Assembly: GCF_003334765.1 (NCBI RefSeq)
Contig: NZ_QOWT01000015.1
DNA: 64,000 nucleotides
Strand: one strand, 5' to 3'
Source of the DNA: Escherichia coli
Lineage (GTDB): Bacteria > Pseudomonadota > Gammaproteobacteria > Enterobacterales > Enterobacteriaceae
Shown here: positions 1,947 to 57,899 of the stretch, piece by piece
Layout of the letters: each line of letters starts with the position of its first letter
How positions within the stretch are numbered: the stretch's first letter is position 1
Notes under the pieces: generated by a model
What the model was told of the DNA's origin: nothing
What the model saw: only the letters and a program-made list of their open reading frames with translations
The model's database searches: none
Translations under genes and position numbers: made by a program

Positions 1947-3269
1947 ATGCAAGCCTATTTTGACCAGCTCGATCGCGTTCGTTATGAAGGCTCAAAATCC
2001 TCAAACCCGTTAGCATTCCGTCACTACAATCCCGACGAACTGGTGTTGGGTAAGCGTATGGAAGAGCACTTGCGTTTTGCCGCCTGCTACTGGCACACCT
2101 TCTGCTGGAACGGGGCGGATATGTTTGGTGTGGGGGCGTTTAATCGTCCGTGGCAGCAGCCTGGTGAGGCACTGGCGTTGGCGAAGCGTAAAGCAGATGT
2201 CGCATTTGAGTTTTTCCACAAGTTACATGTGCCATTTTATTGCTTCCACGATGTGGATGTTTCCCCTGAGGGCGCGTCGTTAAAAGAGTACATCAATAAT
2301 TTTGCGCAAATGGTTGATGTCCTGGCAGGCAAGCAAGAAGAGAGCGGCGTGAAGCTGCTGTGGGGAACCGCCAACTGCTTTACAAACCCTCGCTACGGCG
2401 CGGGTGCGGCGACGAACCCAGATCCTGAAGTCTTCAGCTGGGCGGCAACGCAAGTTGTTACAGCGATGGAAGCAACCCATAAATTGGGCGGTGAAAACTA
2501 TGTCCTGTGGGGCGGTCGTGAAGGTTACGAAACGCTGTTAAATACCGACTTGCGTCAGGAGCGTGAACAACTGGGCCGCTTTATGCAGATGGTGGTTGAG
2601 CATAAACATAAAATCGGTTTCCAGGGCACGTTGCTTATCGAACCGAAACCGCAAGAACCGACCAAACATCAATATGATTACGATGCCGCGACGGTCTATG
2701 GCTTCCTGAAACAGTTTGGTCTGGAAAAAGAGATTAAACTGAACATTGAAGCTAACCACGCGACGCTGGCAGGTCACTCTTTCCATCATGAAATAGCCAC
2801 CGCCATTGCGCTTGGCCTGTTCGGTTCTGTCGACGCCAACCGTGGCGATGCGCAACTGGGCTGGGACACCGACCAGTTCCCGAACAGTGTGGAAGAGAAT
2901 GCGCTGGTGATGTATGAAATTCTCAAAGCAGGCGGTTTCACCACCGGTGGTCTGAACTTCGATGCCAAAGTACGTCGTCAAAGTACTGATAAATATGATC
3001 TGTTTTACGGTCATATCGGCGCGATGGATACGATGGCACTGGCGCTGAAAATTGCAGCGCGCATGATTGAAGATGGCGAGCTGGATAAACGCATCGCGCA
3101 GCGTTATTCCGGCTGGAATAGCGAATTGGGCCAGCAAATCCTGAAAGGCCAAATGTCACTGGCAGATTTAGCCAAATATGCTCAGGAACATCATTTGTCT
3201 CCGGTGCATCAGAGTGGTCGCCAGGAACAACTGGAAAATCTGGTAAACCATTATCTGTTCGACAAATAA
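1947..3269 (+). CDS. xylA: Xylose isomerase (440 aa)
   Basis: ORF track 1935..3269; protein [16 protein letters not shown]... with conserved xylose isomerase sequence throughout; start placed at the second ATG, which has a GGAG SD 7 nt upstream. Confidence 0.95.
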
Positions 3270-3340
3270 CGGCTAACTGTGCAGTCCGTTGGCCCGGTTA
3301 TCGGTAGCGATACCGGGCATTTTTTTAAGGAACGATCGAT

Positions 3341-4795
3341 ATGTATATCGGGATAGATCTTGGCACCTCGGGCGTAAAAGTTATTTTGCTCAACGAGCAG
3401 GGTGAGGTGGTTGCTGCGCAAACGGAAAAGCTGACCGTTTCGCGCCCGCATCCACTCTGGTCGGAACAAGACCCGGAACAGTGGTGGCAGGCAACTGATC
3501 GCGCAATGAAAGCTCTGGGCGATCAGCATTCTCTGCAGGACGTTAAAGCATTGGGTATTGCCGGCCAGATGCACGGAGCAACCTTGCTGGATGCTCAGCA
3601 ACGGGTGTTACGCCCTGCCATTTTGTGGAACGACGGGCGCTGTGCGCAAGAGTGCACTTTGCTGGAAGCGCGAGTTCCGCAATCGCGGGTGATTACCGGC
3701 AACCTGATGATGCCCGGATTTACTGCGCCTAAATTGCTATGGGTTCAGCGGCATGAGCCGGAGATATTCCGTCAAATCGACAAAGTATTATTACCGAAAG
3801 ATTACTTGCGTCTGCGTATGACGGGGGAGTTTGCCAGCGATATGTCTGACGCAGCTGGCACCATGTGGCTGGATGTCGCAAAGCGTGACTGGAGTGACGT
3901 CATGCTGCAGGCTTGCGACTTATCTCGTGACCAGATGCCCGCATTATACGAAGGCAGCGAAATTACTGGTGCTTTGTTACCTGAAGTTGCGAAAGCGTGG
4001 GGTATGGCGACGGTGCCAGTTGTCGCAGGCGGTGGCGACAATGCAGCTGGTGCAGTTGGTGTGGGAATGGTTGATGCTAATCAGGCAATGTTATCGCTGG
4101 GGACGTCGGGGGTCTATTTTGCTGTCAGCGAAGGGTTCTTAAGCAAGCCAGAAAGCGCCGTACATAGCTTTTGCCATGCGCTACCGCAACGTTGGCATTT
4201 AATGTCTGTGATGCTGAGTGCAGCGTCGTGTCTGGATTGGGCCGCGAAATTAACCGGCCTGAGCAATGTCCCAGCTTTAATCGCTGCAGCTCAACAGGCT
4301 GATGAAAGTGCCGAGCCAGTTTGGTTTCTGCCTTATCTTTCCGGCGAGCGTACGCCACACAATAATCCCCAGGCGAAGGGGGTTTTCTTTGGTTTGACTC
4401 ATCAACATGGCCCCAATGAACTGGCGCGAGCAGTGCTGGAAGGCGTGGGTTATGCGCTGGCAGATGGCATGGATGTCGTGCATGCCTGCGGTATTAAACC
4501 GCAAAGTGTTACGTTGATTGGGGGCGGGGCGCGTAGTGAGTACTGGCGTCAGATGCTGGCGGATATCAGCGGTCAGCAGCTCGATTACCGTACGGGGGGG
4601 GATGTGGGGCCAGCACTGGGCGCAGCAAGGCTGGCGCAGATCGCGGCGAATCCAGAGAAATCGCTCATTGAATTGTTGCCGCAACTACCGTTAGAACAGT
4701 CGCATCTACCAGATGCGCAGCGTTATGCCGCTTATCAGCCACGACGAGAAACGTTCCGTCGCCTCTATCAGCAACTTCTGCCATTAATGGCGTAA
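3341..4795 (+). CDS. xylB: Xylulokinase (484 aa)
   Basis: ORF track; MYIGIDLGTSGVKVILL... FGGY-family sugar kinase N-terminus; immediately downstream of xylA. Confidence 0.95.
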   Translation: MYIGIDLGTSGVKVILLNEQGEVVAAQTEKLTVSRPHPLWSEQDPEQWWQATDRAMKALGDQHSLQDVKALGIAGQMHGATLLDAQQRVLRPAILWNDGRCAQECTLLEARVPQSRVITGNLMMPGFTAPKLLWVQRHEPEIFRQIDKVLLPKDYLRLRMTGEFASDMSDAAGTMWLDVAKRDWSDVMLQACDLSRDQMPALYEGSEITGALLPEVAKAWGMATVPVVAGGGDNAAGAVGVGMVDANQAMLSLGTSGVYFAVSEGFLSKPESAVHSFCHALPQRWHLMSVMLSAASCLDWAAKLTGLSNVPALIAAAQQADESAEPVWFLPYLSGERTPHNNPQAKGVFFGLTHQHGPNELARAVLEGVGYALADGMDVVHACGIKPQSVTLIGGGARSEYWRQMLADISGQQLDYRTGGDVGPALGAARLAQIAANPEKSLIELLPQLPLEQSHLPDAQRYAAYQPRRETFRRLYQQLLPLMA

Positions 4796-22568: not shown

Positions 22569-22902
<334 letters not shown>

Positions 22903-22990
22903 CGTAGGCCTGATAAGACGCGTCAGCGTCGCATCAGGCAAATGTGCCGGCCATTGTCGGATGCGGCGCGACCGCCTTATTCGACCTACA
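22903..22990. repeat. REP / BIME palindromic element pair
   Basis: AGGCCTGATAAGACGCGTCAGCGTCGCATCAGGC and CGGATGCGGCGCGACCGCCTTATTCGACCTAC match the E. coli REP consensus family. Confidence 0.75.
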
Positions 22991-23555
22991 CGACACACAT
23001 TTCCCTGCCAAATTTGCGCCCCATATCTCACTATCCATTAACGGATTTGTGACAGAAACCATTGTCTTTTTTTATATTTGCTTAAATCTTTTTTTGCGTT
23101 ACTTATGGCTGGCCCTGGCATTTTCCGCTGTGCGTTTTAGCGTTCATGGTATTAATCGCTCAGATATCCACCTTTTCCTCAGATTTTTTTCATTAAATGC
23201 ATAAAACTTAATCACCAAATGTTGCTAAATATTAAGCTGATTGTTCTGGTCATGTTGGAGTAGCACAAATTTCTCTGCTGCAAATAGCTGTTTGAAGTTT
23301 TTTTAATCTTTGTTTGTGGATTCTCACCGTTGGTGTAAATCCCGGTTGGCTGTATTGACGTTTTCACATTCTGTTGACAGATTGTAGGTCACGAGGGGCA
23401 TTTTATGGAGGATCCGCACTGTTACACTGATGTTAATTAGTACGGCATCCCCACCTCATAACGTTGACCCGACCGGGCAAAAAACAAAAAAGGTCAGGCA
23501 GCGACAACCCACTGCAAAGGGTTAAAACAACAAACATCACAATTGGAGCAGAATA

Positions 23556-25200: not shown

Positions 25201-25300
25201 GCCTGATGCGCTCCGCTTATCAGGCCTACGAAAATTCTGCAATGTATTGAATTTGCACGATTTTGTAGGCCGGATAAGGCGTTAACGCCGCATCCGGCAT
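25201..25300. repeat. REP / BIME element in the dppA-dppB intergenic region
   Basis: GCCTGATGCGCTCCGCTTATCAGGCCTAC ... GTAGGCCGGATAAGGCGTTAACGCCGCATCCGGC: inverted REP pair. Confidence 0.8.
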
Positions 25301-52841: not shown

Positions 52842-52910
52842 GCTGCCTCATTTTCCGCCTGGCTGGACTATCTTTAGGACTGGCACAGGAAGAATATGAG
52901 GAAGCGAACG

Positions 52911-54971
52911 ATGAGCAAGGCAGGCAAAATAACCGCTGCGATTTCAGGGGCTTTCTTGTTGTTGATTGTCGTGGCGATCATTTTGATTGCAACTTTTGAC
53001 TGGAATCGACTCAAACCGACTATCAACCAGAAAGTCTCTGCGGAGTTGAATCGTCCGTTCGCTATCCGTGGCGATCTGGGCGTGGTGTGGGAGCGGCAAA
53101 AACAAGAAACTGGCTGGCGCAGCTGGGTGCCGTGGCCCCATGTACACGCGGAAGACATCATTCTTGGCAATCCACCGGATATTCCCGAAGTCACGATGGT
53201 GCATTTGCCACGCGTAGAGGCAACGCTGGCCCCGCTGGCGCTGCTGACCAAAACGGTCTGGCTGCCGTGGATCAAGCTCGAAAAGCCCGACGCGCGCCTG
53301 ATTCGCCTCTCTGAAAAGAACAATAACTGGACGTTTAATCTTGCCAACGATGATAACAAAGACGCGAATGCAAAGCCGTCGGCATGGTCGTTTCGGCTGG
53401 ATAATATTCTTTTCGATCAAGGGCGGATCGCCATTGATGACAAAGTAAGCAAAGCGGATCTGGAGATTTTTGTTGATCCCTTAGGCAAGCCGCTGCCGTT
53501 CAGCGAAGTTACTGGATCGAAAGGTAAAGCGGATAAAGAAAAGGTGGGCGATTACGTTTTTGGCCTGAAGGCGCAGGGACGATATAACGGTGAACCGCTC
53601 ACGGGTACGGGAAAAATAGGCGGTATGCTGGCGCTGCGTGGCGAAGGGACGCCGTTTCCGGTACAGGCTGATTTCCGCTCTGGTAACACCCGTGTTGCTT
53701 TTGATGGCGTCGTGAATGACCCAATGAAGATGGGCGGTGTCGATTTACGGCTTAAATTTTCTGGCGATTCACTGGGTGATCTCTATGAACTGACGGGCGT
53801 TCTGCTGCCCGATACCCCGCCGTTTGAAACGGATGGTCGGCTGGTAGCGAAAATCGACACTGAAAAATCGTCGGTCTTTGATTATCGCGGTTTTAATGGG
53901 CGAATTGGTGATAGCGATATCCACGGTTCTCTGGTCTACACCACCGGAAAGCCACGACCAAAACTGGAAGGTGATGTCGAGTCGCGGCAATTGCGGCTGG
54001 CGGACCTGGGACCGTTGATTGGCGTTGATTCCGGGAAAGGGGCAGAAAAGTCGAAACGGTCTGAACAGAAGAAGGGCGAAAAAAGCGTTCAGCCTGCGGG
54101 CAAAGTGCTGCCTTATGACCGCTTCGAAACCGATAAATGGGACGTTATGGATGCCGATGTTCGCTTCAAAGGGCGGCGCATTGAGCATGGCAGTAGCCTG
54201 CCGATTAGCGATCTTTCTACTCATATCATCCTCAAAAATGCTGACCTGCGCCTGCAACCGCTGAAATTTGGCATGGCGGGCGGCAGCATTGCGGCGAATA
54301 TTCATCTGGAAGGCGATAAAAAGCCGATGCAGGGGCGGGCAGATATTCAGGCTCGTCGACTGAAACTGAAAGAACTGATGCCCGATGTGGAACTGATGCA
54401 GAAGACGCTGGGGGAAATGAACGGTGACGCGGAACTACGCGGTAGCGGTAACTCGGTGGCGGCACTTTTAGGCAACAGTAACGGCAACCTGAAACTGTTG
54501 ATGAATGACGGGCTGGTGAGCCGCAACCTGATGGAGATTGTTGGGCTGAATGTCGGCAACTACATTGTCGGTGCGATATTTGGTGATGATGAGGTGCGGG
54601 TGAACTGCGCGGCGGCGAATCTGAATATTGCCAACGGCGTGGCGCGCCCGCAGATTTTTGCTTTCGATACTGAGAACGCGTTGATTAATGTTACCGGCAC
54701 GGCAAGTTTTGCTTCGGAACAGCTGGATTTGACTATTGATCCGGAGAGTAAAGGAATTCGGATTATCACACTGCGTTCGCCGCTGTATGTGCGGGGGACG
54801 TTTAAAAATCCGCAGGCTGGGGTGAAAGCCGGACCGCTGATTGCCCGTGGTGCTGTTGCTGCGGCACTGGCAACGCTGGTAACACCGGCGGCGGCGTTAC
54901 TGGCACTGATCTCACCTTCCGAAGGGGAGGCTAATCAGTGTCGGACGATTTTGTCGCAGATGAAGAAGTGA
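52911..54971 (+). CDS. yhjG: AsmA-family inner-membrane-anchored periplasmic protein YhjG (686 aa)
   Basis: ORF track 52896..54971; start at MSKAGKITAAISGAFLLLIVVAIILIATFDWN (N-terminal TM anchor). Confidence 0.88.
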   Translation: MSKAGKITAAISGAFLLLIVVAIILIATFDWNRLKPTINQKVSAELNRPFAIRGDLGVVWERQKQETGWRSWVPWPHVHAEDIILGNPPDIPEVTMVHLPRVEATLAPLALLTKTVWLPWIKLEKPDARLIRLSEKNNNWTFNLANDDNKDANAKPSAWSFRLDNILFDQGRIAIDDKVSKADLEIFVDPLGKPLPFSEVTGSKGKADKEKVGDYVFGLKAQGRYNGEPLTGTGKIGGMLALRGEGTPFPVQADFRSGNTRVAFDGVVNDPMKMGGVDLRLKFSGDSLGDLYELTGVLLPDTPPFETDGRLVAKIDTEKSSVFDYRGFNGRIGDSDIHGSLVYTTGKPRPKLEGDVESRQLRLADLGPLIGVDSGKGAEKSKRSEQKKGEKSVQPAGKVLPYDRFETDKWDVMDADVRFKGRRIEHGSSLPISDLSTHIILKNADLRLQPLKFGMAGGSIAANIHLEGDKKPMQGRADIQARRLKLKELMPDVELMQKTLGEMNGDAELRGSGNSVAALLGNSNGNLKLLMNDGLVSRNLMEIVGLNVGNYIVGAIFGDDEVRVNCAAANLNIANGVARPQIFAFDTENALINVTGTASFASEQLDLTIDPESKGIRIITLRSPLYVRGTFKNPQAGVKAGPLIARGAVAAALATLVTPAAALLALISPSEGEANQCRTILSQMKK

Positions 54972-55042
54972 TGATAATTGCCGGATGTCTGACATCCGGC
55001 AATTAAACAGATTTAGATTGTTGGCAAAGTGTGCTTTGTTCA

Positions 55043-55140
55043 TGCCGGATGCGGCGTGAACGCCTTATCCGGCCTACAAATCCTTGCGAATTCAATATAT
55101 TGTATGGAAATTCAGGCCTGATAAGCGTAGCGCATCAGGC
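55043..55140. repeat. REP / BIME element between convergent yhjG and yhjE
   Basis: GCCGGATGCGGCGTGAACGCCTTATCCGGCCTAC ... AGGCCTGATAAGCGTAGCGCATCAGGC; a further small hairpin GCCGGATGTCTGACATCCGGC lies at ~54980-55000. Confidence 0.8.
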
Positions 55141-55152
55141 TTTTCACTCTTA

Positions 55153-56475
55153 TTACAACGACTGATGTCGCGTCTCATGGGTCAGCAGCAGGGCGATTAA
55201 CGTCAAGCCAGCCATCGCCGCCAGATATAACCCCACCGCACCTAGCCCGTAGTTAGTCTGCAACCAGGCTGCGATATATGGCGCAACGGAAGCCCCGAGA
55301 ATCGACGCTACGTTGTAAGAGAACGATGCTCCGGTGTAACGCACTTCTGTCGGAAACAGCTCTGGTAACAGCGCACCCATTGGCCCGAAGGTCAGACCCA
55401 TCAGACTTAACCCCAGCAGCAGGAAGGCAAAAACCAGAATCGGGTTGCCAGAACCGAGCAGTGGGTTAAAGGCGAACAGCGCGAACAGGATGATCAGCGT
55501 GGTGATGATTACCATGCTTTTACGGCGACCAAAGGCATCAGCCAGTAATCCAGCGACTGGCACCATCACGCCAAAACCAATAACTGCCATCATCAACATC
55601 CACAACACTTCGTTACGCGGCAGGCCAAGCCCAACTGGCGCGGCGGCGGTACTAAAGGTCATAGAGTAGACCGTCATGATGTAAAACAGCGTATAGGTTG
55701 CCAGCATAATGAACGTACCCAGTACGGTTACGCGAACATGTTTGGTCAGCAGCGTACCCAGCGGGATCTTCACCTGTTTTTTCGCTTTAGCGACTTTCTC
55801 AAACACCGGCGACTCATGCAGCGACACGCGAACATACAGGCCGATAATGACCAGCACCGCCGAGAAGATAAATGGCACACGCCAGCCCCAGCTCATAAAC
55901 TGCTCGTCGGTCAGTAGCCAGGAAAGCAGCAAGAAAGTGCCATTGGCAAAGAAGAAGCCAATCGGTGCGCCCAGCTGCGGAAAGGAGCCATACAGTGCAC
56001 GTTTGCGCGGTGGGGCGTTTTCAGTCGCCAGCAGCGCCGCGCCGCCCCATTCACCGCCTAAGCCCAGACCCTGACCAAATCGAGCCAGCGCCAGCAGCAG
56101 CGGGGCGAAAATACCAATCGTGGCATAGCCCGGCAGCAGACCAATCACCACGGTCGAAATCCCCATCGTTAGCAACGAGGCGACCAGCGTCGCTTTACGC
56201 CCAACGCGATCGCCAAAATGACCAAAAACGGCAGAGCCAATGGGGCGCGCGACGAAGGCGATGGCGAAGGTGGCGAGCGACTGTAGCGTTGCTGCCGTAG
56301 GATCGCCCTGCGGGAAGAAGATATGCGGAAACACAATAACGGCCGCAGTGGCGTAAATGTAAAAGTCGAAGAACTCAATGGCTGTGCCAATGAGAGAGGC
56401 GACAAGGACTTTATTACGCGAGTTGATCGGCGTGTATTCTTGCTCGTGGTCGAGTGTTGTGGCTGTTGCTTGCAT
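55153..56475 (-). CDS. yhjE: MFS transporter YhjE (metabolite:H+ symporter family), 440 aa
   Basis: ORF track; 12 predicted TM segments; MQATATTLDHEQEYTPINSRNKVLVASLIGTAIEFFDFYIY... Confidence 0.9.
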   Translation of the reverse strand: MQATATTLDHEQEYTPINSRNKVLVASLIGTAIEFFDFYIYATAAVIVFPHIFFPQGDPTAATLQSLATFAIAFVARPIGSAVFGHFGDRVGRKATLVASLLTMGISTVVIGLLPGYATIGIFAPLLLALARFGQGLGLGGEWGGAALLATENAPPRKRALYGSFPQLGAPIGFFFANGTFLLLSWLLTDEQFMSWGWRVPFIFSAVLVIIGLYVRVSLHESPVFEKVAKAKKQVKIPLGTLLTKHVRVTVLGTFIMLATYTLFYIMTVYSMTFSTAAAPVGLGLPRNEVLWMLMMAVIGFGVMVPVAGLLADAFGRRKSMVIITTLIILFALFAFNPLLGSGNPILVFAFLLLGLSLMGLTFGPMGALLPELFPTEVRYTGASFSYNVASILGASVAPYIAAWLQTNYGLGAVGLYLAAMAGLTLIALLLTHETRHQSL

Positions 56476-56786
56476 AATCTTTTCTTATTTTTTGGCTAAC
56501 GAATAGCCATATTACGCACAGCAAAAGTGATATTTCAATGTGTAACAAATCGCGGAAATGGTCAAAAATCAGGCAAAAAGGGGATAATGTTTAGGCCAGT
56601 GATTTTTCTTCTATGAAATGCTTCACATAATTTTATAAATAGTGGATAAAACTGGTTTCAGGTTAAATAAAAGTTACCAACTGGATTTATATGCTGGGGT
56701 TATGAGTTGGAATGAAATTGTTTGCTCCCAAATAGATGGCTGAAGAGGCTCTGGGGACGAGTTTCAAGAGGTTATGTGCGCATTAT

Positions 56787-56885
56787 AGCCGGATGCGATG
56801 CTGGCGCATCTTATCCGGCCTACGGGGAGCCAGGCCGAATAAAATCGTATGCCGGATAAGGCGTTTACGCCGCATCCGGCCTATT
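56787..56885. repeat. REP / BIME element between yhjE and yhjD
   Basis: GCCGGATGCGATGCTGGCGCATCTTATCCGGCCTAC ... GCCGGATAAGGCGTTTACGCCGCATCCGGCC; abuts the yhjD stop codon. Confidence 0.8.
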
Positions 56886-57899
56886 TTAAGGCTGCGTTTT
56901 CCCCGGCATTCGCGGGTCGTCTTTATATTCGGCGGTGGCAATCCACGCCGCGCAAAACAGCGTCAAACGGGCGAAGAAGTAGAAAAATGCCATCAGCCCC
57001 AGCACGGAACCAAATGCTGCGCCAGAGGGGGATTTCATCAACGATGGCAGGGTGTAGGTCATCACGATTTTAATCACTTCAAAACCAATAGCAGCCAGAA
57101 ATGTTCCGCGAATCAGGGCTTTTTTGCGCGGACGGTGGCGCGGCAACCGCCAGAAGATCCAGAAGAAAAGCAGATAGTTGGCGAAGATGGAAATCGCCAG
57201 GCCAATCAATCGCCACGTCGGTTTCAGCCACTCAATGCTGTTCAGGTGCAGGGCGCTAATAATCATTTGCTGCGCCGAACCGGCAACCGAGGTGATCGAA
57301 AGCGTCACAATCAGCGCAATCAACAAACCAATCAGCGAAATAAAATCTCGCAGATATTTTACCCAGAACTTCTCCTGATCTTGCGGCGAGCGTTCCCAGA
57401 CATCGCGCGACTGGGCACGAATCGCTTCACGCAGGTTACCCATCCAGTTGATGCCGGAATAAAGTGCCACCGCCAGGCCGACAAGCCCTACAGTCGTACG
57501 CTGCTGAACGGCGGTGTTGATGGTGTTTTTCAACGTGGCGGCTAGCGTCGGATCGCTGATGTTTTGCAGAATTTTGTCGAAGATATCCTGTAGCAACATC
57601 GGATGGGAGGCCAGCACAAAGCCCCCTGCGGCAAACGACACCATCAAAATTGGTATCATCGACAAAAATGAGAAATAGGTGATAGCCGCACCAAACTGGT
57701 TACCCAGCCGATCGTTAAAGCGTTCTGTCGCGCGAATCAGGTGCGCAATAACCGGTTGGCGTTGGACTTTTTCGGCAGTGGTGGTGACGGTTTCCAGCGC
57801 CTGGCTAACTTTGCTGCCTTTCTCGCTATTATCCAACGGCTTAATCGGCTCGTGCTCCAGATCCTGGATGGGACGTTTGATCTCGTTTTCCTGCGTCAT
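56886..57899 (-). CDS. yhjD: Inner membrane protein YhjD, YihY/virulence-factor BrkB family (337 aa)
   Basis: ORF track; MTQENEIKRPIQDLEHEPIKPL..., then a polytopic membrane domain. Confidence 0.88.
   Translation of the reverse strand: MTQENEIKRPIQDLEHEPIKPLDNSEKGSKVSQALETVTTTAEKVQRQPVIAHLIRATERFNDRLGNQFGAAITYFSFLSMIPILMVSFAAGGFVLASHPMLLQDIFDKILQNISDPTLAATLKNTINTAVQQRTTVGLVGLAVALYSGINWMGNLREAIRAQSRDVWERSPQDQEKFWVKYLRDFISLIGLLIALIVTLSITSVAGSAQQMIISALHLNSIEWLKPTWRLIGLAISIFANYLLFFWIFWRLPRHRPRKKALIRGTFLAAIGFEVIKIVMTYTLPSLMKSPSGAAFGSVLGLMAFFYFFARLTLFCAAWIATAEYKDDPRMPGKTQP

Follow-up and report, generated by a model that had tools for sequence, protein, structure and literature searches.

The palindromic repeats that bracket yhjE are very probably unexceptional E. 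coli repeats of the REP/BIME family, one a BIME-1 and one a BIME-2-like pair, each located where a transcription unit ends, with repeat turnover that leaves yhjE unrearranged and with presumed roles at mRNA 3′ ends. The repeat content of both spacers varies widely among strains and the order of the genes around them is nearly constant.

Repeat elements beside yhjE

The analyzed window is a 64-kb stretch (64,000 nucleotides) of E. coli K-12 DNA. The following features are discussed (positions in the window):

52896-54971, plus strand: yhjG, AsmA-family protein, stop TGA at 54969-54971 (open reading frame list and RefSeq annotation of identical K-12 records)
54975-55005, no strand: perfect palindrome with 15-bp arms, TAATTGCCGGATGTC-T-GACATCCGGCAATTA, with the REP-like arm GCCGGATG (inverted repeat; fold -20.9 kcal/mol, z -6.1)
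55011-55142, minus strand: whole unit assigned to BIME-1 (RIP/RIB), about 130 bp including a flank of about 30 nt (recurs at other loci with 86-89% identity, the matches spanning positions 60-191 of a query made from 54952-55172)
55044-55078, plus strand: REP A, y type, CTAC foot intact at 55075-55078 (hairpin -21.3 kcal/mol)
55079-55110, no strand: L linker of the BIME-1, 32 nt, with the IHF-like site ATTCAATATATTG at 55090-55102 (alignment with the dppA BIME-1; sub-threshold Rfam ES036/CssrF match at 55078-55119)
55111-55140, minus strand: REP B, short, z1-like, 30 nt (regular-expression match; fold -13.4 kcal/mol)
55153-56475, minus strand: yhjE, MFS transporter of 440 aa, tandem stops TAATAA (open reading frame list and RefSeq annotation)
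56476-56787, minus strand: spacer between yhjD and yhjE outside the repeats, with the promoter and 5′ region of yhjE (cross-genus comparison; CRP-like site at 56613-56628 read from the sequence)
56788-56824, plus strand: REP C, z2 type, CTAC foot intact at 56821-56824 (regular-expression match; fold -23.2 kcal/mol)
56825-56845, no strand: short S-type linker, 21 nt (inverted repeat; BIME-2 definition from PMC3333891)
56846-56880, minus strand: REP D, y type, two mismatches to the y consensus (32/34), foot GTAT where GTAG is expected
56886-57899, minus strand: yhjD, inner-membrane protein, stop at 56886-56888 (open reading frame list and RefSeq annotation)

With yhjG on the plus strand and yhjE and yhjD on the minus strand, one REP pair lies 3′ of yhjE and is common to the convergent yhjG, and the other lies 5′ of yhjE, directly 3′ of yhjD. 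The original prediction of four REPs, two on each side of yhjE, was confirmed at the positions given, by consensus and regular-expression matches, by folding and by copy number. REPs A to D are each placed between annotated genes, and all four give bulged hairpins of -13 to -23 kcal/mol (z-scores -3.5 to -4.6). A strict REP regular expression detected seven REPs in the 64 kb (14 matches over both strands), compared with 0.01 in shuffled sequence. REP A agrees with the y consensus at 34/34 positions, for which 0.00 matches are expected from shuffles. REPs are imperfect palindromes of 30-40 nt that fit the y, z1 or z2 consensus, with a conserved GTAG/CTAC tetranucleotide at the hairpin foot. The REP types follow PMC3333891. 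These sequences belong to a dispersed family: a 2.5-kb query of the locus matched a median of at least 39 places per genome, and an 81-nt REP D query a median of 22.

Being GC-rich hairpins at the 3′ ends of genes, the palindromes might be read as intrinsic terminators that only resemble REPs. We consider this reading to have practically no chance of being correct, because none of the hairpins is followed by a T-run, a terminator scan reports none, the REP consensus is matched at 32-34 of 34 positions, and there are dozens of copies per genome, with the full 130-bp BIME-1 unit recurring elsewhere; copy number and consensus identity rule out mere terminators. A simple promoter/terminator scan likewise found nothing at the REPs, and its total number of matches was no higher than in shuffles. 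In Rfam all matches stayed below threshold; they were to families derived from REPs, naRNA4 for the REPs themselves and ES036 for the BIME-1 linker. The RefSeq feature table of MG1655 holds no repeat features.

The yhjG/yhjE unit has the composition predicted for a BIME-1: y and z1 REPs in inverse (tail to tail) orientation, in one copy, separated by a long L linker. The L linker with an IHF site is part of the BIME-1 definition (PMC3333891). The IHF-like site ATTCAATATATTG fits 12 of the 13 positions of WATCAANNNNTTR, and an end-to-end alignment of the unit with the dppA BIME-1 showed the site to be common to both. On DNA the L linker would be expected to bind IHF. The unit resembles the published BIME-1/RIP/RIB elements (Bachellier et al. 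1994; Boccard & Prentki 1993; Oppenheim et al. 1993, as summarized in PMC3333891) in its inverse y and z1-type REPs, its single copy and its linker of about 32 nt with an IHF-type site. It differs in the z1 copy, REP B, which at 30 nt is below the length of the z1 consensus and has a degenerate foot (TCAG for GTAG), and its IHF site is a predicted one. The perfect palindrome between yhjG and this unit is probably the "REPt" terminator that was named for the locus in PMC2892488; it is kept in a hairpin-only allele of the spacer described below and in E. albertii (alignment and E. albertii sequence).

On the other side, REP C and REP D form a z2 and y pair after the yhjD stop, 310 bp upstream of yhjE; the non-repeat region between this pair and yhjE is conserved across Enterobacteriaceae genera. 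Inverse y and z2 REPs with a short S linker are the arrangement of BIME-2, the gyrase-binding class (Espeli & Boccard 1997, as summarized in PMC3333891), and REP C and REP D have it, with the 21-nt linker. BIME-2 typically occurs as tandem copies (PMC3333891); only a single unit is present in K-12, and we therefore call it BIME-2-like. BIME-2 is bound and cleaved by gyrase, and by analogy the pair on DNA would be a putative gyrase site. It differs from BIME-2 in the single unit and in the GTAT of REP D in place of GTAG.

REPs occur elsewhere in the window. The original prediction also named dppA and proK. After dppA a second BIME-1 is located (25201-25230 and 25264-25298); after proK there are a good REP of z1 type (22903-22939) and a degenerate REP (about 22956-22992). 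In total, eight REPs at four loci, one of them degenerate, were found in the 64 kb, an average density for K-12, for which 584 REPs have been reported (PMC3333891) and 355 annotated REP loci are given in PMC4550694. The bracketing of yhjE by REPs is unsurprising, since about 8% of spacers bear one and, by our estimate, about 30 genes per genome would be bracketed by chance.

Spacer alleles among E. coli genomes

We classified both spacers in 5,426 complete E. coli genomes by megablast with an 80% coverage cut-off, which left 133 genomes unclassified at the yhjG/yhjE spacer and 56 at the yhjD/yhjE spacer. The yhjG/yhjE spacer holds the BIME-1 in 3,578 genomes, a boxC/TMECO pair instead in 1,493 and the hairpin only in 222. 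At the yhjD/yhjE spacer, two full REPs are present in 3,548 genomes, an 18-bp deletion that takes out the left arm of REP D in 1,221, and a boxC-containing replacement in 601. Identical REP content in all strains, which the original prediction had named as its refutation, was not observed: the content differs in about one third of the genomes at each spacer. Slippage between direct repeats was not upheld as the origin of the 18-bp deletion. The linker does contain a stretch that resembles a REP arm, at an offset of 17 nt where 18 would be needed, and the certain microhomology amounts to 2 nt (TA).

The replacing sequences fit the published pattern of the boxC/PIT/TMECO intrastrand-triplex repeats (PMC4666352). 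The boxC pattern taken from that work, CCCTCNCCC-N3-6-GGGNGAGGG-N3-GGGNGAGGG, has two inverted matches in each of the strain loci L004 and L009 and one match in each spacer of L008, and no match in the K-12 window, where boxC is relevant only as the replacement of the BIMEs in other strains. The alternative yhjG/yhjE allele is an inverted pair made up of one type A copy and one copy with a CTG second loop. BoxC/TMECO loci are reported to be unusually variable (PMC4666352).

A mobile element was detected in one REP. In strain SK1402, the TAC loop of REP D harbors an IS1397 insertion accompanied by a duplication of 3 bp, in agreement with the known targeting of REP loops by IS1397 (Clement et al. 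1999; PMC1525189); the insertion differs in being a singleton here (1 of 5,426 genomes) and in its target, the 18-bp-deleted REP form. IS1397 as a common occupant of REP D was rejected, the other 24 matches with at least 80% coverage being copies next to similar REPs elsewhere.

Gene order and exchange of the spacers

The REP clusters could in principle serve as recombination substrates through which the yhjE segment would readily invert, be deleted or be mobilized as a cassette. REP A and REP D, 1,769 nt apart, form an inverted repeat of 34 nt with 94% complementarity, REP A and REP C have a 14-nt direct repeat in common, REP-REP recombination has been documented at other loci (cited in PMC1525189), and both spacers are hypervariable. 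We regard this explanation as very improbable. A probe for the junction predicted from a REP-REP inversion, in which window 54930-55077 runs into 56700-56846 in reverse complement, was covered to 80% or more by none of 5,426 genomes, and inversion was rejected; yhjG′-yhjE-yhjD′ is colinear on one strand in 5,421 of them. A colinear yhjE copy is thus missing in at most five genomes, and loss or major rearrangement of yhjE was rejected. The gene order is also the same in Citrobacter, Enterobacter, Serratia, Rahnella and others, with other repeats or none. The variation is limited to the spacers: it is repeat turnover inside them and not variation of the bracketed yhjE segment.

Exchange between strains has a different basis, namely ordinary homologous recombination in the flanking genes, by which the spacer alleles have been reassorted. 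Among the strains compared, the common alleles of one spacer occur with those of the other in all four possible combinations. The hairpin-only allele sits in a patch of about 1 kb (in strain N58, the equivalent of window 54583-55650) with 79-93% identity to K-12, surrounded by flanks of 97-100% identity, and was therefore imported by homologous recombination; the same patch led us to reject an ancestral empty site or a precise excision. The patch is as distant from other E. coli as E. albertii is, and, among the candidate donors compared, E. albertii, Citrobacter and cryptic Escherichia (L011) are no closer to it. The original prediction of a recombination-prone segment is thus borne out for homologous recombination among strains, as seen in the divergent patch and the allele combinations, but fails for yhjE itself, with gene order intact and the inversion absent.

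The order yhjD-yhjE-yhjG is also preserved in genera without E. coli REPs. In these genera a non-REP hairpin follows yhjD, and the yhjG/yhjE spacer measures 36-130 bp and holds a hairpin, the species' own REPs or boxC; E. albertii has three REPs at the yhjD-side spacer. The repeats are late, dispensable colonists of the two spacers, which in other genera contain a plain terminator-like hairpin, and within E. coli they have been gained, lost, trimmed or swapped for boxC/TMECO.

A more speculative hypothesis, which we put forward as possible though doubtful, is that the spacers beside yhjE are landing pads, at which unrelated small repeat families have been inserted recurrently and independently, beside or in place of the native 3′-end hairpin. 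The families seen there are the E. coli REP/BIME, the species-specific REPs of Citrobacter, Enterobacter and Cedecea, and boxC/TMECO, and the hypothesis is drawn from the pattern over 29 Enterobacteriaceae loci and from the three-way polymorphism within E. coli. If true, it would point to a shared hairpin- or terminator-directed mechanism of insertion or replacement, boxC included. Alternatively, spacers between converging genes or after terminating genes may tolerate insertions better, so that repeats build up by survival and not by targeting.

Proposed 3′-end roles and significance

The functions attributed to these elements by the original prediction (stabilizing mRNA, binding gyrase or IHF, and serving as targets of Y1 REP-associated transposases) agree with the literature summary in PMC3333891. 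We infer the functional steps at the yhjE locus from the behavior of the REP family. Transcripts of yhjD, yhjE and yhjG would include the REPs at their 3′ ends, where the hairpins would block 3′-to-5′ exonucleases and attenuate read-through; such attenuation could limit antisense transcription between yhjG and yhjE, as well as yhjD read-through into yhjE. REPs within 15 nt of a stop codon are reported to make terminating ribosomes stall, so that the gene before them is translated less (Liang et al. 2015, as summarized in PMC12306157). The stems begin 5 nt past the yhjD stop (REP D), 12 nt past the yhjE stop (REP B) and 3 nt past the yhjG stop (the 54975-55005 palindrome), which places all three inside this range. 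The Y1 transposase (TnpA-REP/RAYT) binds and cleaves REP hairpins that have a GTAG guide on the 5′ side; the tetranucleotide is kept in two of the four REPs here, and no tnpA-REP gene adjoins the yhjE locus.

A stronger proposal is that the REPs regulate yhjD and yhjE in a selected, locus-specific manner, for example as translation dampers acting through hairpins close to the stop codon or as an IHF-dependent insulator, and that the alleles reflect adaptive regulatory divergence between lineages. It is in line with the hairpin found 3-12 nt past the stop in all three genes and with the presence of some hairpin at these positions in every genus examined; regulatory divergence at the locus was suggested in PMC2892488, and the 15-nt rule for translational effects (PMC12306157) is favorable to it. 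We nevertheless find it unlikely, because structurally unrelated sequences (REP, boxC and plain hairpin) stand in for each other at high frequency within one species, so that the conserved need looks like "a hairpin" and not "a REP". For ordinary REP/BIME elements, which we prefer, any regulatory effect should be small or replaceable, given that one third of the strains do without these REPs.

The locus as such was already known. Darling, Mau & Perna described it in 2010 (progressiveMauve, Fig. 9; PMC2892488) as hypervariable REP/RIP spacers and inferred recombination among strains. On the yhjD side they reported a REP element, and on the yhjG side a RIP that carries an IHF site, together with the REPt terminator; in E24377A unrelated sequence takes the place of the RIP. 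The genes, elements, hypervariability and recombination among strains are identical in the two analyses; theirs was a qualitative comparison of 23 genomes, and ours provides counts in 5,426. Our results additionally identify the replacement as boxC/TMECO, place the hairpin-only allele in a divergent patch of about 1 kb, and include the negative REP-REP inversion test and a comparison with what other genera have in these spacers.

As REP/BIME elements of E. coli are textbook knowledge and the locus had already served as a published example of hypervariable REP-bearing spacers, the finding matters little beyond bookkeeping. The general point is that REPs bracketing a gene do not destabilize the gene; it is the repeat content of the spacers that turns over, including swaps between REP and boxC. 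The yhjE locus, with BIME, boxC and bare hairpin in near-identical contexts, could serve as a natural allele series for testing the role of REPs in 3′-end processing and in translation of the upstream gene.

REP elements and BIME architecture at yhjE

The 2.5-kb query around the locus is 100% identical to K-12 derivatives (e.g., BW25113), and the window is the reverse complement of MG1655, approximately 3,667,261-3,731,260. The spacer between the convergent yhjG and yhjE genes is 181 bp long, and the yhjE start codon lies 410 bp downstream of the yhjD end.

Features of the yhjE locus (window coordinates)
52896-54971, + strand: yhjG, AsmA family
54975-55005: perfect palindrome with 15-bp arms (-20.9 kcal/mol), 3 nt past the yhjG stop, opening the yhjG/yhjE spacer
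55044-55078, + strand: REP A, y
55111-55140, - strand: REP B, short z1-like
55153-56475, - strand: yhjE, MFS transporter
56788-56824, + strand: REP C, z2
56846-56880, - strand: REP D, y
56886-57899, - strand: yhjD

The elements flanking yhjE are ordinary, annotated-type REP/BIMEs. The REP pairs noted originally on both sides of yhjE were confirmed by consensus, regex and hairpin folds. The y-type consensus matches perfectly at 55044-55077 and with 2 mismatches at 56847-56880, and a third copy sits after dppA (0.00 matches expected from dinucleotide shuffles); a stricter arm-loop-arm regex detected 7 REPs in the 64 kb, versus 0.01 in shuffles. A bulged REP hairpin is predicted for each of REP A-D (-13 to -23 kcal/mol, z -3.5 to -4.6), and REP A and REP C keep an intact GTAG/CTAC foot, which has degenerated in the other two. 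Rfam gave sub-threshold matches only, to the REP-derived families naRNA4 (REPs) and ES036 (linker). The pair expected after dppA was located at 25201-25230 and 25264-25298, while of the two REPs after proK one is good and the other degenerate. Just ahead of the proK-side REPs we detected a direct duplication of ~105 bp (22620-22735 and 22797-22903), containing the proK 3' end, its terminator and downstream sequence, which looks like a remnant of integration or of attachment-site duplication.

Beyond the palindrome, the yhjG/yhjE spacer is one BIME-1, composed of REP y, a 32-nt AT-rich linker and an inverted short z1, and it fits the definition of this class (y + z1, single copy, long L linker, often with an IHF site; PMC3333891). 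The linker holds ATTCAATATATTG (55090-55102), a candidate IHF site matching the consensus at 12/13 positions. The unit aligns along its whole length with the dppA BIME-1, the IHF-like site being common to both, and further copies of the ~130-bp unit, 86-89% identical, occur at other places in E. coli genomes. On the yhjD side the z2 and y REPs are separated by 21 nt; the composition is that of BIME-2, but with one unit in place of the tandem copies usual for BIME-2 we call it BIME-2-like.

REPs on both sides of yhjE are not unusual. The flanking REPs are dispersed repeats, present in tens of places per genome; K-12 carries 584 REPs (PMC3333891), with 355 annotated REP loci according to PMC4550694, and at 8 REPs over 4 loci, counting one degenerate copy, the window is close to average for the genome. 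At ~8% spacer occupancy, we estimate that ~30 genes per genome are bracketed by REPs through chance.

Spacer alleles and recombination among E. coli strains

We compared 5,426 complete E. coli genomes, counting a genome as colinear when it held 80% or more of the 2.5-kb query in colinear order; alleles were defined from alignments of representatives and counted with allele-specific queries. Gene order was essentially invariant (5,421/5,426 genomes colinear).

Spacer alleles in 5,426 complete E. coli genomes
yhjG/yhjE, BIME-1 as in K-12: 3,578 genomes
yhjG/yhjE, wholly replaced by unrelated 233-bp or 172-bp sequence: 1,493 genomes
yhjG/yhjE, 40 bp, hairpin only (type strain ATCC 11775 among carriers): 222 genomes
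yhjG/yhjE, unclassified (e.g., strain 100117): ~133 genomes
yhjD/yhjE, both REPs complete: 3,548 genomes
yhjD/yhjE, one REP D arm lost to an 18-bp deletion: 1,221 genomes
yhjD/yhjE, BIME replaced by other sequence: 601 genomes
yhjD/yhjE, unclassified: ~56 genomes

The replacement sequences contain boxC/PIT/TMECO motifs fitting the published pattern exactly (PMC4666352); the yhjG/yhjE allele has two of them, inverted, and the yhjD/yhjE allele has one. A pattern search found no boxC motif in the K-12 window. In strain 100117 (L091, 2494-2610) the 117-bp yhjG/yhjE spacer retains BIME-1, the REP-like hairpin and pre-BIME-1 stretch are deleted, and the y REP begins 8 nt past the yhjG stop.

The locus is already known. 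In the progressiveMauve paper (PMC2892488), Figure 9 shows yhjE with a REP element on one side and, on the other, a RIP element bearing an IHF site plus a REPt terminator; that study termed the spacers hypervariable, inferred recombination from indel patterns against taxonomy, and noted RIP swapped for unrelated sequence in E24377A, whose spacer we found identical to the boxC allele of yhjG/yhjE (233/233). BIME polymorphism and IS1397 targeting have also long been known (PMC3333891, PMC1525189).

REP A and REP D are inverted repeats, 94% complementary. Their recombination (inversion) junction was detected in 0/5,426 genomes and deletion can explain at most 5; the idea that the REPs destabilise the bracketed segment fails. 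Ordinary homologous recombination among strains is evident at the locus, and every combination of the common alleles of the two spacers was present among ten strains. Thus, of the proposed recombination-prone segment, hypervariable spacers with reassorting alleles stand, but yhjE itself is stable, with no REP-mediated rearrangement.

The hairpin-only allele lies within a patch (~54583-55650) having 79-93% identity to K-12, with flanks at 97-100%. Its precise excision was rejected, since the spacer is embedded in this ~1-kb divergent patch; the patch is an import. Its distance to other E. coli equals that of E. albertii, none of the relatives compared was closer to it, and its REP-free spacer is present in 222/5,426 genomes. 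In strain N58 (L007/L092) the patch, which has the 79-93% identity to other E. coli as well, covers the yhjG 3' end, the REP-free spacer and the final ~440-500 nt of yhjE. No extra flank divergence was detected around the boxC allele.

The REP-specific IS1397 was found in the REP D loop, with a 3-bp TAC duplication, in strain SK1402 (L002, 3139-4581), the 1 genome with this insertion. Its target was the allele already without the other REP D arm through the 18-bp deletion; there, the arm that is left, ATCCGGCC, can base-pair with linker GGCCGGAT, and therefore a REP-like hairpin may persist. In another single genome, 23CRST030 (L003, ~2729-3510), IS1A is inserted within the first ~50 nt of the yhjE coding region (777 bp extra, IS1 plus a 9-bp duplication), leaving the annotated yhjE truncated and having no relation to REPs.

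Putative functions at the locus

By membership of the REP family, the 3' hairpins would protect mRNA and attenuate read-through, and IHF and gyrase may bind these REP/BIMEs. No T-run follows any REP in the locus sequence, and the terminator scan called no REP. REP stems begin 5 nt past the yhjD stop and 12 nt past the yhjE stop, both within the 15-nt range for which ribosome stalling and lower translation of the upstream gene were reported (Liang et al. 2015, as summarised in PMC12306157), and translational damping is possible from what is known of the family.

The yhjE upstream region (56480-56700) shows strong conservation between genera of Enterobacteriaceae. Within it lie TGTGAAGCATTTCATA (56613-56628, - strand), a near-consensus candidate CRP site (TGTGA-N6-TCAtA) suggesting potential CRP control of yhjE, and the conserved block GTAACTTTTATTTAACC..AAACCAGTTTTAT.

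The spacers in other species

The yhjD-yhjE-yhjG synteny extends through Enterobacteriaceae, reaching Serratia and Rahnella. Insertions of 0.3-1.2 kb between yhjE and yhjG were detected at six loci (L013, L017, L018, L024, L026, L033), in Citrobacter sp. R56, Escherichia sp. ESNIH1, Pseudescherichia vulneris, Superficieibacter and two Enterobacter. E. albertii NBRC 107761 (L012, 3324-4167) is without yhjG, and yhjE converges on pdeH (90% identity to K-12 PdeH) across a 31-bp spacer with just the REP-like hairpin TTGCCGGATGCCTGGCATCCGGCAA. No similar hairpin follows pdeH in K-12, so a hairpin-hairpin event is no obvious explanation for the loss of yhjG.

In Enterobacter spp. and Kosakonia (L021, L034, L052), minimal yhjG/yhjE spacers of 36-38 bp consist of the palindrome CCCTCTCCC...GGGAGAGGG, which corresponds to blocks one and two of the boxC/TMECO motif, and in related genera complete boxC copies occupy this position. 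This hints that boxC could originate from hairpins of this type or target them.

In most genera yhjD is followed by a conserved non-REP hairpin (CGGGCTGA...TCAGCCCG), and the spacer measures 252-274 bp. In place of this hairpin, Escherichia, several Citrobacter and Cedecea carry REPs of their own, and Buttiauxella a pair of boxC elements. Between yhjG and yhjE the spacer is 36-130 bp long for the majority of genera and contains a plain hairpin, REPs specific to the species, or boxC. Some hairpin always occupies these positions, which the REPs therefore colonised late.
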